Positions 24,251 through 63,995 of a DNA stretch of 64,000 nt are shown one piece after another (within the stretch, counting starts at the first letter, position 1; every line of letters begins with the position of its first letter). This DNA is from Escherichia phage vB-Eco-KMB40, in the sequence record OR539220.1. The stretch is one strand, 5' to 3'. The position numbers and the translations under genes were made by a program. The notes beneath the pieces are model-generated. The model was not told where the DNA came from. It worked only from the letters and a program-made list of their open reading frames with translations, and did no database searches.

Positions 24251-24266
24251 AGGGGCCGAAGCCCCT
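24251..24266. terminator. hairpin AGGGGC-CGAA-GCCCCT in intergenic spacer
   Basis: GC-rich tetraloop hairpin; T-run on plus side only, so may be an RNA stability element rather than a minus-strand terminator. Confidence 0.35.
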
Positions 24267-24641: not shown

Positions 24642-24677
24642 TTTATTCTCCAAGATGTTTAATTGCGGTACAGGTAT

Positions 24678-24706
24678 ATAATATCATATCCTGTACCAAA
24701 GTAAAC
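24678..24706 (-). promoter_or_regulatory. early promoter
   Basis: Minus GTTTAC, 17 nt, TATTAT; overlaps 8-bp inverted repeat GGTACAGG...CCTGTACC. Confidence 0.45.
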
Positions 24707-28059: not shown

Positions 28060-28088
28060 TTTGTTTTCCTCATTTGTTTGGTAGAGCC

Positions 28089-28118
28089 ATAATATCACAA
28101 CTCTACCGTAAAGTAAAC
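28089..28118 (-). promoter_or_regulatory. early promoter
   Basis: Minus GTTTAC, 18 nt, TATTAT. Confidence 0.45.
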
Positions 28119-39998: not shown

Positions 39999-40024
39999 TT
40001 TATTCTCCTCAAGTTGATAGGGTA

Positions 40025-40054
40025 ATAGTATCACACTACTACCCTGTTGTAAAC
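40025..40054 (-). promoter_or_regulatory. early promoter
   Basis: Minus GTTTAC (plus 40049-40054), 18 nt, TACTAT, then leader CCCTATCAAC. Confidence 0.5.
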
Positions 40055-40056
40055 AA

Positions 40057-40359
40057 TTATTTTTGAATTTTATCGAGCCACTTACCAAGCTTAATCATTT
40101 CTTTAATAGCCTTTTCCATACTTCTGAACTTAACCAATAGAGGATAGGTATCGACACCCATAACTAAACTGGTTACAAGACTGTGTTCACCCACAAGCCA
40201 TAACGAATACGTTTGAATATCGAGTCCGTAATTTCTGTCTTTATGGACCCGTACACCCATCACTTCAAATTTCTCACTAGCTTTTTCTACCGCATCCAGG
40301 AAATCATCTTTAGTCATATTAGGCCTTAAAAGTTTTTTGCAAAAGTTCAATGATTTCAT
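40057..40359 (-). CDS. hypothetical protein
   Basis: 100-aa ORF; alternative ATG at 40317. Confidence 0.45.
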   Translation of the reverse strand: MKSLNFCKKLLRPNMTKDDFLDAVEKASEKFEVMGVRVHKDRNYGLDIQTYSLWLVGEHSLVTSLVMGVDTYPLLVKFRSMEKAIKEMIKLGKWLDKIQK

Positions 40360-40684
40360 CTACATTGTTTTCATCAACAATGCAGTGAATTTTTGTTACG
40401 CCAGAAACCTTGTCTTTAACTTCATCCTCTTCAGAAGTCGGTTCTTTATATTCGCGGAAACAATGAAATTCGTCTTCACAAACGTTAAAGTAAAAATGCT
40501 TTCCATTTGCGCATTCAATGTGTTTTATTACTCTAAATCCATCAACAAAGAAAGCTTCTTTAACTTCAAACCATCCGCCGTTTTCTTGAATAATTTTAAC
40601 TATTGATGAATTAGAACGTGGGCGATAATTAATAAATGTATCAATAAGTCTTGGAACAAGCTCATACTTTTTGCCGATATACAT
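40319..40684 (-). CDS. hypothetical protein
   Basis: 121 aa from ATG 40684 with RBS GAGGAAA. Confidence 0.5.
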   Translation of the reverse strand: MYIGKKYELVPRLIDTFINYRPRSNSSIVKIIQENGGWFEVKEAFFVDGFRVIKHIECANGKHFYFNVCEDEFHCFREYKEPTSEEDEVKDKVSGVTKIHCIVDENNVDEIIELLQKTFKA

Positions 40685-40699
40685 TACGGTTTCCTCATT

Positions 40700-40739
40700 T
40701 TGATAGGGGCTTGATAGGGGCTTGATAGCCCCTTGATAA
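40700..40739. repeat. 11-bp tandem repeat (about 3.6 copies) with perfect palindrome GGGGCTTGATAGCCCC
   Basis: TTGATAGGGGC, TTGATAGGGGC, TTGATAGCCCC, TTGATAA; fills the spacer between two minus-strand ORFs. Confidence 0.7.
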
Positions 40740-40970
40740 TTATTGTTCAATCAGTCCCATGTAAAATTCTGCGTCTTCAGAATCCATGCCATCACAATAT
40801 TCATTAGCCATAAAGCGGGTGAGGTCTTCAAGAGGACCTTCAATGACAATAGAAAAATTGCAATAATTGGGATCATCGTGAATACTTGTGATACTAAGTT
40901 CAGGATAACGATTACGAATAATTTCTTCAATATATTCAAAATCAACGATGTCAATATCAACTTTAGCCAT
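40740..40970 (-). CDS. hypothetical acidic protein
   Basis: 76 aa from ATG 40970 with RBS GAGGAAAAT; supplied ORF extended through the promoter. Confidence 0.5.
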
Positions 40971-41013
40971 ATTATTTTCCTCTTTAATTATCAGCAGTAT
41001 TGCCGATAGTTGT

Positions 41014-41043
41014 ATAGTACCATGGAAGGACAAGGATGTAAAC
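41014..41043 (-). promoter_or_regulatory. early promoter
   Basis: Minus GTTTAC (plus 41038-41043), 18 nt, TACTAT; AT-rich UP-like tract. Confidence 0.5.
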
Positions 41044-41061
41044 AGTTTTGTGAAAAATTTT

Positions 41062-41092
41062 TAAAATAAAAAAGGGGACCCTAGAGGTCCCC
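41062..41092 (-). terminator. gene 32 terminator GGGGACC-loop-GGTCCCC plus U-run
   Basis: 7-bp GC stem 22 nt after gene 32 stop; UUUUUUAUUUUA tail on minus strand. Confidence 0.55.
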
Positions 41093-41114
41093 AATTAATT
41101 AGTAATATAATCTA

Positions 41115-42020
41115 TTAAAGGTCATTCAAAAGGTCATCCAGGTCCGTGTCATCAGCACTAGATGAACTGCCAGAGCTTGAGCTCATAAAATCATCTTCAG
41201 TTTTTGTATTGAAGTCATCAACATTGAATGCATCCAAATCATCAGCAACTTTATCAGCTTTCTTAGCAGCAGTTGCAGCGGCACCGCCCATCACAGCAGT
41301 TCCCATAACTTGACCGAATTTAGTGCTCAGTTCTTCAAATGATTTGAATTTATCTTTAGAAGTCATTTCAGAAAGGTCAACCATTTGTTCGAACAGTTCT
41401 TTCTGGAAAGATTCATCATCAATGTTTGGAATCGCAGATTGATTCAGGAATTTAGATTCATCGTAGTTACTAAATCCAGAAACCTGTTTAACTTTCAGTA
41501 CAAAGTTAGCACCTTCCCACGGACAAGTTACATCAACCGGAGTTTCACCCATTTCAACATCAACTGCAATCATTGCATTGATTTTATCCCAGATTTTCTT
41601 ACCGAAACGGTATTTAAATACTTTACCTTCATTTTCTGGAGCAGCTGGGTCTTTTACAACAAGAATATTAGCCCAGTAAGAAGTTTTACGTTTAACAAGA
41701 CCGTACTCTTTATTGTCAGTGTTGTACAGATCATTTTTACTGATGTATTGACATACTGGGCAAGAATCGTAATCACCGTGGGTAGATGAACATGTTTCAA
41801 TATACCATTTACCATTTTTCTTGAAACCGTGATTTACAAGAATTGCGAATGGTGCTTGTTCATCATTTTTAGACGGAAGAAAACGAATTACTGCTTGACC
41901 GTTACCCGCATTATCGAGTTTCAGTTTCCACTCGCCTTTATCTTCAGAAGAAAAACCTTTATTGCCATTCAGTTTAGCCATTTGTGCAGCAAGTTCAGCA
42001 GTAGATTTACGTTTAAACAT
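41115..42020 (-). CDS. 32: single-stranded DNA-binding protein gp32
   Basis: 301 aa; [23 protein letters not shown]... matches T4 gp32. Confidence 0.95.
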
Positions 42021-44870: not shown

Positions 44871-44899
44871 ATGAACCTCGTTCAATTAGTGAGATTTCT

Positions 44900-44929
44900 A
44901 TTATATACCATCCAAATCTTAAAGTAAAC
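44900..44929 (-). promoter_or_regulatory. early promoter for rnh
   Basis: Minus GTTTAC (plus 44924-44929), 18 nt, TATAAT. Confidence 0.45.
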
Positions 44930-54011: not shown

Positions 54012-54027
54012 AGGGGCTTCTGCCCCT
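54012..54027 (+). promoter_or_regulatory. hairpin AGGGGC-TTCT-GCCCCT between genes 37 and 38
   Basis: 6-bp GC stem directly upstream of gene 38 RBS GGAGG. Confidence 0.35.
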
Positions 54028-60136: not shown

Positions 60137-60217
60137 TCACTGGCGTCCGAAGACGCCTTTAGTTTTAAGATTATTACGATAGAACTGCATCACGTGTTCG
60201 TTGTGGAAATTACTCAT
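60137..60217 (-). CDS. stp: Stp peptide (activator of PrrC anticodon nuclease)
   Basis: 26 aa [26 protein letters not shown], identical to T4 Stp as recalled; ATG overlaps ndd stop (TAATG). Confidence 0.85.
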
Positions 60218-61385: not shown

Positions 61386-61413
61386 TTTCTGTTCCTCCGT
61401 AGTTGATAGGGTA

Positions 61414-61443
61414 ATAGTACCACGGAAGAACAGTCTTGTAAAC
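61414..61443 (-). promoter_or_regulatory. early promoter
   Basis: Minus GTTTAC (plus 61438-61443), 18 nt, TACTAT, leader CCCTATCAAC. Confidence 0.45.
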
Positions 61444-62800: not shown

Positions 62801-62825
62801 TTAAAACAAAAGGGCCGAAGCCCTT
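62801..62825 (-). terminator. hairpin AAGGGC-UUCG-GCCCUU plus U-rich tail
   Basis: Directly after stop of ORF 62830-63024. Confidence 0.45.
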
Positions 62826-62829
62826 TATT

Positions 62830-63024: not shown

Positions 63025-63056
63025 AATTTTCCTTAATGTGATAAGGGCCGAAGCCC

Positions 63057-63995
63057 TTATTTAAATTGTTCAGTAACGTCTTCAACTACTTCGTATTGGC
63101 AGGTACGCATTTTAGCATCGTTGTAATCAATCGGAATTGATACTACATCGCGAGGATGAACTTTAACTTTTACAACTCGGCTGGTTGAACTGCCAAAATG
63201 ACGAATATAAGATTTAGAACACACATGCAGACCACGAGAACAAGTTTGTGTATCATCGTCATTCACACGAGTACGTGGCATTTTAACTACTTTACCCGGA
63301 CTGTTATCAAAGGTGTTTGAGTGACAGTCAAAGTAGTTGTCACGAACTACTTTCCAAGCATAGAAGTAGCCATCTTCTGTAATTTCAATATCGTTTGCTA
63401 CCAAGAAATCAAAGAGTCGAGATACCGCTTTTTGGCTTGGGTTTTCCAGCAGATTTTCCAAGAACGGAAAATAAAATTCAAAGTTTTCGCCTTTTTCCAT
63501 CGAGTCAAGAATACGATCAACCAAACCAGACCGCAATTCGATATTTTGATAGAACAAGCTTCCACCTTCAATTCGAACATCGCCGGAAATATATTTTTCA
63601 ACAGCGCGACGAACATTAATTTTTTGTGCCGCTTCTTCCAACTTATCTGCTACGAGCAGATTAAGAATTTCCTGGAAGTTTGAATGAGTATTAGGAGTTG
63701 CGTTATAAGTTACGCCATCAACAGTAATTGAAATGAATTTTTTAGATGCATTCCAAATAATGTCAGATTTAGCAACTGGAGCAATAACTGCATCGCTATT
63801 AACTTTAACTGTAATATCACCGCTAATAGTAACTTTAGGGTGTTTAGCTTCTTCAGCATTTTTCAAAACACGACGGATTGTGTCAACCGATACATCCTTC
63901 CAATAAGCTAATTCCTGCTGAGTGTAATTACCACTTGAATACAGTTTAACAATTTCAGCTTGTTCGTTTTTGGTCAGGCATTTAATATTGTACAT
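63057..63995 (-). CDS. rIIB: rIIB protein
   Basis: 312 aa; same length as T4 rIIB and located at the expected end of the ndd-denB block. Confidence 0.85.
   Translation of the reverse strand: MYNIKCLTKNEQAEIVKLYSSGNYTQQELAYWKDVSVDTIRRVLKNAEEAKHPKVTISGDITVKVNSDAVIAPVAKSDIIWNASKKFISITVDGVTYNATPNTHSNFQEILNLLVADKLEEAAQKINVRRAVEKYISGDVRIEGGSLFYQNIELRSGLVDRILDSMEKGENFEFYFPFLENLLENPSQKAVSRLFDFLVANDIEITEDGYFYAWKVVRDNYFDCHSNTFDNSPGKVVKMPRTRVNDDDTQTCSRGLHVCSKSYIRHFGSSTSRVVKVKVHPRDVVSIPIDYNDAKMRTCQYEVVEDVTEQFK

Follow-up and report, generated by a model that had tools for sequence, protein, structure and literature searches.

The 11-nt tandem repeat in the frd.3–frd.2 spacer of a T4-like phage: probably an ordinary intercistronic hairpin with a strain-specific duplication

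The frd.3–frd.2 spacer and its hairpin

The window analysed here is a 64,000-nucleotide stretch of Escherichia phage vB-Eco-KMB40 (record OR539220.1), a T4-like phage (Tequatrovirus). It shares about 96% DNA identity with many Tequatrovirus genomes and matches none of them exactly. On the minus strand the early genes frd.3 and frd.2 are separated by an intercistronic spacer that carries a tandem repeat with an 11-nt period; from 40739 to 40700 the mRNA strand reads UUAUCAA-GGGGC-UAUCAA-GCCCC-UAUCAA-GCCCC-UAUCAA. The gene order around the spacer (gp32, segG, frd.3, frd.2) is the same in T4, and the SegG-like GIY-YIG protein is likewise encoded on the minus strand close to the spacer. The features of the locus are as follows:

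41115–42020, minus strand: gp32 of T4 type
41092–41074, minus strand: gene 32 terminator (terminator scan)
41014–41042, minus strand: early promoter TTTACA-N17-TACTAT, upstream of frd.3
40740–40970, minus strand: frd.3, 76 amino acids, Pfam Phage_FRD3; stop codon TAA at 40742–40740
40739–40733, minus strand: UUAUCAA, start of the 11-nt array
40732–40728, minus strand: GGGGC
40727–40722, minus strand: UAUCAA
40721–40717, minus strand: GCCCC
40716–40711, minus strand: UAUCAA
40710–40706, minus strand: GCCCC
40705–40700, minus strand: UAUCAA, end of the array
40716–40733, minus strand: RNA hairpin A-GGGGCU-AUCA-AGCCCC-U, 7 bp with a 4-nt loop (predicted by folding)
40700–40721, minus strand: two identical GCCCCUAUCAA units, one of which is a lineage-specific 11-nt duplication (the new copy is indistinguishable from the old)
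40690–40696, minus strand: Shine–Dalgarno sequence GAGGAAA of frd.2
40319–40684, minus strand: frd.2, 121 amino acids, Pfam FRD2, an early protein with a predicted LSm-like fold (PMC12152347); start codon ATG at 40684–40682
40711–40740, plus strand: antisense sigma-70-like match TTGATA-N18-GATAAT, 10/12

As mRNA the whole spacer reads UAA-UUAUCAA-GGGGC-UAUCAA-GCCCC-UAUCAA-GCCCC-UAUCAA-AAUGAGGAAACCGUA-AUG. A reading made from the sequence alone had described an 11-bp tandem repeat at 40700–40739 that almost fills a 57-nt spacer and is directly followed by the ribosome-binding site GAGGAAA. The repeat is real, it does nearly fill the spacer and the ribosome-binding site (40696–40690) does follow it, but the distance from stop codon to ATG is 55 nt (40739–40685). 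Tandem Repeats Finder reports an array at 40700–40728 (period 11, 2.6 copies, 100% match) and a second, overlapping array (83%) that reaches 40738. Two further observations concern the neighbourhood: frd.2 occurs as two allelic types, and an extra ORF at 40060–40317 has no counterpart in T4.

The inverted repeat GGGGCT/AGCCCC occupies 40717–40732, and a flanking A-U pair makes the stem 7 bp long, with a predicted energy of about −13 kcal/mol. It had been called a perfect palindrome; an inverted repeat of the hairpin type is indeed present, but the 16-mer is not self-complementary, its centre being TGAT. The local hairpin stands out from shuffled sequences (z about −2 to −3), whereas the 121-nt region as a whole folds no better than shuffles (z = −0.14). 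Structure prediction, one of the checks proposed earlier, returns the hairpin with a pairing probability of 0.999 for the proximal arms. An alternative fold between the 5′ arm and the distal GCCCC was rejected (probability 0.001), and the spare unit is predicted to stay single-stranded. The predicted probability that the Shine–Dalgarno sequence is unpaired is 0.69 in the window, 0.79 in the window minus one unit, 0.75 in T4 and 0.83 in RPN226, a relative that has no hairpin. Since the proximal arms pair almost fully, the spare GCCCC remains free and Shine–Dalgarno accessibility is similar across alleles, the duplication looks functionally silent in these models, with the hairpin and the ribosome-binding site essentially unchanged.

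These predictions also bear on the suggestion that the repeat might be a translational operator for frd.2; an operator that works by structure is unlikely. Unlike operators of the RegA, gp32 or gp43 type, the hairpin neither overlaps nor sequesters the ribosome-binding site: it ends at 40716, 19 nt upstream of the Shine–Dalgarno sequence, and folding predicts the latter to be largely unpaired in all alleles (0.69–0.83). The UAAC/CAAC loop of the gp43 operator (PMC3014915) was also compared with AUCA/UAUCAA, and does not match.

A G/C-rich hairpin right after a stop codon resembles an intrinsic terminator, and in one GenBank record (SA20RB) the orthologous hairpin is labelled a rho-independent terminator on the basis of a WebGeSTer prediction. 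The spacer differs in that the stem is followed by UAUCAAG or UAUUAAAAU in place of a U-tract, and in that the downstream gene is early in T4. The sequence after the stem in the window is AUCAAGCCCC, which holds no U-tract, and the terminator scan reports the gene 32 terminator only; the earlier judgement that this is not a classical terminator is borne out. An Rfam scan of 40300–41200 at E<=1 gave no match at the spacer, and the T4 GenBank records NC_000866 and AF158101 carry no regulatory annotation there.

Alleles of the spacer in related phages

We surveyed about 30 alleles of the spacer from GenBank phages, IMG/VR and JGI metagenomes. Their forms include the following:

T4: TTATCAA-GGGGC-TATCAA-GCCCC-TATTAA-AATGAGG
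T2, TB37 and SP1: GGGGCT-ATTAC-AGCCCC-GTTAAAATGAGG, without TATCAA and without CCCTATCAA
T2-type alleles: GGGGCTATTACAGCCCCGTTAAAATGAGG, a sequence without any CCCTATCAA
CM8: loop ATTACA
ACG-C40 and RB32: loop TATTAA
Maryam and PhiZZ6: loop TCTATCAA
JLBYU31: GGGGCTA-TTTGA-TAGCCCC
UFV11: GGGGGC-TATAAT-AGCCCC
L103: GGGGC-TATTAT-AGCCCC
L102: GGGGT-TATAAA-GCCCC
L073: 3′ arm AGTCCC
AR1: an extra 5′ arm, GGGGT-TATCAA-GGGGC-TATCAA-GCCCC
RPN226: 5′ arm lost and no hairpin, TAA-CTATCAA-GCCCC-TATTAA

The part that is conserved across these alleles is the stem GGGGC(U)/(A)GCCCC only. The loop and the 3′ flank vary (TATCAA, TATTAA, TATTAC, TATAAT, TATTAT), and as RNA the relatives' loops include AUUAC, UAA, UUUGA and others. 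Some alleles extend the stem to 7–8 bp. Both in-stem changes, the AGUCCC arm of L073 and the GGGGU arm of L102, keep pairing as G.U in the sense RNA only. In most alleles the stem consists of invariant G-C pairs and true compensatory changes within the spacer hairpin are lacking; its conservation could partly reflect a short divergence time. RPN226 exists without the hairpin, which is therefore dispensable.

Compared with the window, T4 and nearly all relatives are one 11-nt unit short; the one-unit carriers include T4, a T4-like contig from IMG/VR, Shfl2, ECO78 and B1.1. Among 454 GenBank matches, IMG/VR and the JGI metagenomes, no further T4-like sequence showed the form with two GCCCCTATCAA units. 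For GenBank this rests on the full-length matches, which span 149–152 nt of the 161-nt query and none of which keeps all 161; the IMG/VR and metagenome collection was scanned by exact pattern for the two-unit form. The closest alleles (Maryam, PhiZZ6 and L104) share the same downstream TATCAAAATGAGGAAACCGTAATG. Copy number shifts by exactly 11 nt in both directions, with a 3′ arm gained in the window, a 5′ arm gained in AR1 and a 5′ arm lost in RPN226.

The spacer also coincides with a change in similarity to T4 and T2. Identity to T4 is 100% at 40720–40840 and falls to 36–82% in the 5′ half of frd.2, T2-type phages show the reverse pattern, and in 183 of the 454 GenBank matches similarity ends inside the repeat. 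Relative to T4 and T2 the spacer is a mosaic junction, in agreement with cassette-mediated exchange; where a divergent gene begins, however, similarity would be expected to break off in the spacer anyway.

The allele survey speaks against the idea that a recognition motif has been triplicated here. T4, T2 and about 30 other alleles carry a single hairpin and, among the sequences searched, the two-unit form is confined to the window phage; at the comparable position in related genomes it is the stem that recurs, and the motif does not. It also bears on a role at the DNA level, in which a protein would bind the 11-bp-phased GGGGC/GCCCC pentamers as iterons or as an operator, or in which an antisense promoter on the plus strand would arise from the extra unit. 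Origin iterons are found inside phage replication-initiator genes of the lambda O and SPP1 G38P type. Unrelated phage contigs (L039, L033 and the L004 family) do contain arrays of GGGGC/GCCCC units with the same 11-bp period, some identical to the unit of the window, and these lie inside a replisome-organizer gene adjoining a DnaB helicase, as is typical of origin iterons. However, the T4-like site has no replisome-organizer homologue nearby, its neighbours being frd.3, frd.2 and gene 32, and the relatives carry one inverted repeat and no array, with neither repeat number nor the TATCAA word conserved. The similarity is probably coincidental, with about 28 chance 16-mer matches expected by a rough estimate for a collection of about 60 Gb. 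As T-even DNA contains glucosylated hydroxymethyl-cytosine, operator sites rich in G and C are unlikely. The plus-strand match TTGATA-N18-GATAAT scores 10/12, but this geometry exists in the window allele only, where the extra repeat unit creates it, and it faces no gene; it is probably incidental. Altogether we regard a DNA-level role as extremely unlikely.

Three other resemblances were considered and set aside. The identical 11-mers of the unrelated contigs lie inside replisome-organizer genes or before an unrelated promoter; shared ancestry with them was rejected, and we put the match down to chance, made easier by a unit of such low complexity. By eye, GGGGCTTGATA contains the GCTT of a MotA-box middle promoter, but it lacks the TGCTT context, has the wrong −10 spacing and faces away from the genes. 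The IHF-like WATCAANNNNTTR, also checked by eye, was dropped as TATCAAGCCCCTA fails in the TTR part.

The repeated word at early promoters and the ancestry of the spacer

It had been noticed earlier that the core of the repeat recurs at the leaders of early promoters, and this is correct. TTGATAGGG occurs four times in the 64-kb window against 0.45 expected, a count reached in 0 of 100 shuffles. Each of the two copies outside the spacer (40014–40022 and 61403–61411) comes directly downstream of the −10 of a T4-type early promoter. The 7-mer CTATCAA is weakly enriched (19 against 13.1 expected; 4 of 100 shuffles reach 19). The enrichment of the motif is one argument for a reading in which CCCUAUCAA is a protein or RNA recognition motif, for a processing or stability factor or for a translational repressor of frd.2 (possibly Frd.2 itself), multiplied in the window to strengthen binding. 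Such a reading also draws on the short distance to the frd.2 ribosome-binding site and on the predicted LSm-like fold of Frd.2, a fold often tied to RNA functions (PMC12152347). What, then, is the word at the promoters?

The minus strand of the window has 10 T4-type early promoters. In four of them CTATCAAC follows the −10 in the same register, with near matches in others, and dozens of promoters in relatives share this arrangement. The following were used for comparison:

40013–40053, minus strand: frd.1 early promoter TTTACA-N17-TACTAT-TACCCT-ATCAAC, which holds the core at 40022–40014
40045–40040 and 40024–40019, minus strand: stem bracketing the −10 of the frd.1 promoter, 5′ arm AGGGTA and 3′ arm TACCCT
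61403–61442, minus strand: second early promoter with TACTATTACCCTATCAACT and no matching 5′ arm

The promoters at 61442 and 40053 share TACTATTACCCTATCAACT, 19 identical nucleotides, but the former is without the 5′ arm, and this pattern suggests exchange between cassettes. The three or four bases that precede the start region vary from promoter to promoter, and each variant has its exact complement in the promoter spacer. The arms are mutually complementary and different per promoter: AGGGTA/TACCCT, AGGCTAT/ATAGCCT, GGGTTAT/ATAACCC, AGGTCTAT/ATAGACCT, GGTAGAG/CTCTACC, GTACAGG/CCTGTAC and AGATTT/AAATCT, with the spacer arm given first. A stem search in each sequence showed that in 11 of 18 promoters the −10 is bracketed by a perfect stem of 6 bp or more, against 2.4% in cross-paired controls. 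RNAalifold gave no consensus structure for 14 promoter sequences, because the stems sit in slightly different registers.

On this evidence CCCTATCAA at promoters is a composite of a variable stem arm (CCCT) and a conserved start-site region (ATCAAC). Sigma-70 transcription usually starts 7 nt from the −10, a count that would place the start at the A of ATCAAC. The frd.3 RNA is reported to be NAD-capped and NAD-capping needs a +1A (NAD-cap/dRNA-seq preprint), which fits this start. The CCCT arm covaries with its 5′ partner while ATCAAC is conserved, and CCCTATCAA is therefore no fixed recognition word; in relatives the CCC part is replaced by GCCT, ACCC or GACC. Together with its absence from the spacer in T2-type alleles, its single copy in most relatives, the loss of the hairpin in RPN226, the unchanged predicted accessibility of the Shine–Dalgarno sequence whatever the copy number and the lack of an Rfam match at the spacer, this makes a multiplied recognition motif very unlikely.

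Stems that bracket a −10 have been described in T4-type phages as PeSLs (promoter-early stem-loops), polyG/polyC stem-loops that overlap promoters and for which a lacZ reporter revealed terminator activity (Arbiol et al. 2010, PMC2839356). PeSLs that are ‘degraded’ but keep their stem-loop intact are also known and have been attributed to recombinational slippage (Comeau et al. 2014, PMC4122927). The spacer shares several traits with these cassettes. Its neighbours are small early ORFs, the region is variable (hyperplastic), and it has a stable polyG/polyC stem-loop followed by the Shine–Dalgarno sequence GAGGAAA and ATG. The stem is placed where the arms of intact cassettes bracket the −10, with the same (T)ATCAAC after the 3′ arm, and the spacer sits at a mosaic junction with slippage-type indels as in ‘degraded’ PeSLs. 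It differs in that a strong sigma-70-like early promoter (TTTACW-N17-TAYWAT, T4/PST group) is missing, which is why we file it as a degraded PeSL, and in that the loop is just 4–6 nt and the attenuator activity of the hairpin is putative.

Probable traces of a promoter can be read from the sequence:

40715–40750, minus strand: vestigial promoter geometry, with TTGAAC at 40750–40745, 17 nt ending in GGGGC, TATCAA at 40727–40722, GCCCCT, and A 40715 of ATCAA

This is the register of the frd.1 promoter (TTTACA, 17 nt, TACTAT, TACCCT, ATCAAC). In two distant relatives (L078 and L079) the orthologous spacer holds an 8-bp hairpin, GGGAACAT-GATAAT-ATGTTCCC, inside TATACA-N17-TAATAT, followed by TCAACAAAAATGAGGAAA. 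Homologues of frd.2 elsewhere have a full early promoter upstream and a leader AGGCCCTATCAACTACATGAGGAAA (L087) that is close to the AGCCCCTATCAAAATGAGGAAA of the window. MAFFT aligns the hairpin loop with the −10 of promoter-bearing relatives, these being very short sequences. Several alleles have the arms GGGGCTAT/ATAGCCCC, of the same form as cassette arms, and loops that are perfect −10 hexamers, TATAAT (UFV11) or TATTAT (L103). Promoter-like matches are abundant in AT-rich DNA (15 found against 9.4 expected), and the TTGAAC-N17-TATCAA geometry could be partly coincidental.

Could the spacer still be a working, weak frd.2 promoter? Its −35 would be TTGAAC or TTTACA (40765–40760) in the end of frd.3, its −10 would lie in or near the loop and its start would be the A of AUCAA. 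TTGAAC-N17-TATCAA-GCCCCT-A does stand in the register of bona fide early promoters, a scan also lists TTTACA-N18-AATTAT, alleles with TATAAT or TATTAT loops exist and frd.2 is expressed early in T4. However, the −10-like loop of the window, T4 and T2 alleles lacks the essential, near-invariant final T, there is no TGn, the −35 TTGAAC is weak (4/6 matches), and the early-promoter pattern search does not pick up TTGAAC-N17-TATCAA in the spacer. T4 early promoters are exceptionally strong matches to the consensus (PMC2988021). The TTTACA and TTGAAC hexamers fall within conserved codons (EFYMGLIEQ), so their conservation is uninformative on promoter function, and early frd.2 expression is explained by read-through from the frd.3 promoter. 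We consider a working promoter decidedly unlikely.

The feature is probably an ordinary T4-type intercistronic hairpin, of the degraded PeSL kind, with a strain-specific 11-nt duplication, and not a triplicated recognition site. The fuller reading to which we give somewhat better than even weight is a decayed PeSL which gained 11 nt by slippage in this strain; its hairpin would still form when the spacer is transcribed by read-through, and would serve as an attenuator or 3′-end stabiliser. PeSL ancestry and slippage are what we infer from the comparisons above, and the course of events may be pictured as follows. In intact cassettes the −10 hexamer lies between the two arms, and downstream of the 3′ arm come the conserved (T)ATCAAC of the start site, the Shine–Dalgarno sequence and ATG. 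Here the promoter would have decayed in place, with the stem-loop surviving and the −10 eroding. Transcripts from the promoter upstream of frd.3 would include both arms, allowing the hairpin to form. The 11-bp tandem repeat is visible because TATCAA is common to the 5′ flank, the loop and the 3′ flank, and TATCAA-GCCCC-TATCAA is a textbook substrate for slipped-strand mispairing or unequal crossing-over, by which one GCCCCTATCAA unit would have been gained.

The eye-catching repeat would then have arisen once, by slippage, on an intercistronic hairpin of a type that is common in T4. As such it would illustrate how a promoter/terminator cassette decays in place and then turns, at a mosaic junction, into a hot spot for 11-nt indels, in agreement with the PeSL model, in which T4-type genomes are shuffled by modules.

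Present role of the hairpin

In T4, frd.2 and frd.3 are both early at the RNA and protein level (Wolfram-Schauerte 2022 supplement, PMC9697503). Given that frd.2 is early and the spacer offers no good promoter, frd.2 is therefore read through from the frd.3 promoter; the promoter at 41014–41042 is the likely source of a transcript that runs through the hairpin into frd.2. It follows from read-through that the hairpin is no full stop and at most attenuates. The T4 transcript literature covered here gives temporal classes only, with no start-site or 3′-end coordinates for the spacer.

The earlier suggestion of an RNA processing or stability site holds up in part: an RNA hairpin that acts on stability or read-through is the most plausible present role. 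It would be a partial attenuator and/or a barrier against exonucleases that stabilises the 3′ end of frd.3, with frd.2 still expressed. We infer this best-supported role from the PeSL reporter data and from the many similar hairpins in T4. Terminator or attenuator activity has been shown for an RB49 PeSL only, and in a reporter a PeSL stem-loop cut downstream lacZ as strongly as rrnB T1 (PMC2839356).

A more adventurous proposal is that the G/C pentamers spaced by TATCAA form a ligand site, e.g. an autoregulatory RNA target of the LSm-like Frd.2, or a hairpin-gated weak promoter with its −10 in the loop. This is a long shot; if true, the alleles that differ by plus or minus 11 nt (window, AR1 and RPN226) would offer a natural means of tuning the expression of frd.2. 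The alleles in any case form a natural series, in which the hairpin is absent, single, or joined by an additional 5′ or 3′ arm, and in which the loop ranges from TATCAA to TATAAT. These are ready constructs on the effect of hairpins without a U-tract on read-through and mRNA stability in T4 early operons.

Alternatively, the hairpin and repeat may be a pure relic, the neutral leftovers of a dead promoter cassette with no present function. RPN226 is a viable isolate without the hairpin, the locus tolerates insertions as well as deletions, and T4 can do without frd.2 (PMC12152347). Against this, the stem is kept in many alleles despite diverged loops and flanks, and is in some extended to 7–8 bp, the two in-stem changes keep G.U pairing on the sense strand, and many intercistronic sites of the window carry hairpins of this class. 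We think a pure relic unlikely, and favour the decayed cassette whose hairpin still acts on the mRNA.

The T4 intercistronic C(UUCG)G hairpins, reportedly described by Tuerk et al. in 1988, provide a further point of comparison. These have long been known (summarised in PMC4371310), and the spacer resembles them as a short G/C-rich hairpin between a stop codon and the next Shine–Dalgarno sequence in a T4 early operon. It differs in its loop, which is AUCA/UAUCAA closed by U-A and not the extra-stable UUCG closed by C-G. The window itself contains several hairpins of the same class, placed directly before a Shine–Dalgarno sequence, between it and the preceding stop codon, and without a U-tract:

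24266–24251: hairpin with an identical stem, AGGGGC-UUCG-GCCCCU, then UACUGAGGAA
60157, 62826 and 63060: other hairpins of the same class

The variable region around frd.2

Sequence comparison places a recombination junction at the frd.3-frd.2 spacer. When window 40480-40700 is set against T4 (L001), the 5′ half of frd.2 falls into two allelic types. That of the window is T2-like, with 95-100% identity, and is only 36-82% identical to T4; the 3′ end of frd.3 and the hairpin are 100% T4-like. Two small ORFs are found in this region:

40060-40317, minus strand: additional 86-aa ORF, in the interval from frd.2 to the frd.1 promoter
40684-40698, minus strand: mini-ORF, AUG AGG AAA CCG UAA

The 86-aa ORF matches PHROG 4423, a family without assigned function, but no Pfam entry. 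T4 lacks this ORF, while TB37, AR1, Maryam and others carry it, and it thus marks an indel in the variable region. The mini-ORF contains the frd.2 Shine-Dalgarno (SD) sequence and terminates at a stop codon overlapping the start codon of frd.2 (UAAUG). In T4, translation from the equivalent AUG would continue in frame into frd.2 (MRKIKMEIGKK...). This upstream AUG is not preceded by an SD sequence of its own.

Hairpins and promoter stems in the window

The AGGGGC/GCCCCU stem of the frd.3-frd.2 spacer hairpin recurs in two of five G/C-rich intercistronic hairpins, which lie downstream of a stop codon and ahead of the following SD sequence, lack a U-tract and mostly carry a UUCG loop:

24251-24266, minus strand
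54012-54027, minus strand
60142-60157, minus strand
62809-62826, minus strand
63041-63060, minus strand

Inverted repeats also bracket the -10 element of several early promoters, both at promoters in other sequences compared (L014 and L073-L088) and at the following sites in the window:

40013-40053, minus strand
28080-28117, minus strand
24670-24705, minus strand
44890-44928, minus strand

The arms covary from promoter to promoter. With its 5′ arm upstream of the transcription start, the hairpin can form only in RNA reading through from upstream, and not in the promoter's own transcript. The early promoters at 61403-61442 and 40013-40053 have 19 identical bases in common (TACTATTACCCTATCAACT). 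The complementary 5′ arm AGGGTA is confined to the 40053 promoter and absent from that at 61403-61442, which suggests a past exchange between these promoter-stem-loop cassettes downstream of -10.

Similar repeats in other contigs

L094 3640-3720, also L095 (GC-rich contigs, 100-113 kb): TTGATAGGGGC-TTGATAGGGGC-TTGACA-N15-TATAAT-AGAGGCATG
L039 2190-2270, also L033 (IMG/VR contigs, 42-44 kb): arrays of 11-bp-phased GGGGC/GCCCC pentamers
L007 5880-5950 and about 20 sibling contigs (sample 3300045988): arrays of the same kind

In L094 and L095 the 11-mer TTGATAGGGGC is reiterated as -35-like hexamers upstream of a near-consensus promoter, after which the leader is very short. The pentamer arrays, e.g. 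GGGGC-TATCAA-(GCCCC-TATCAA)x3-GGGGA-TACCAA, lie within an ORF matching the PHROG families DnaD-like helicase loader and replisome organizer, with a DnaB-type helicase gene directly downstream. By their arrangement these arrays look like origin iterons within an initiator gene. In L039 the array is followed by (GAACAG)n(GAACAT)n, coding for EQEQ..EHEH.
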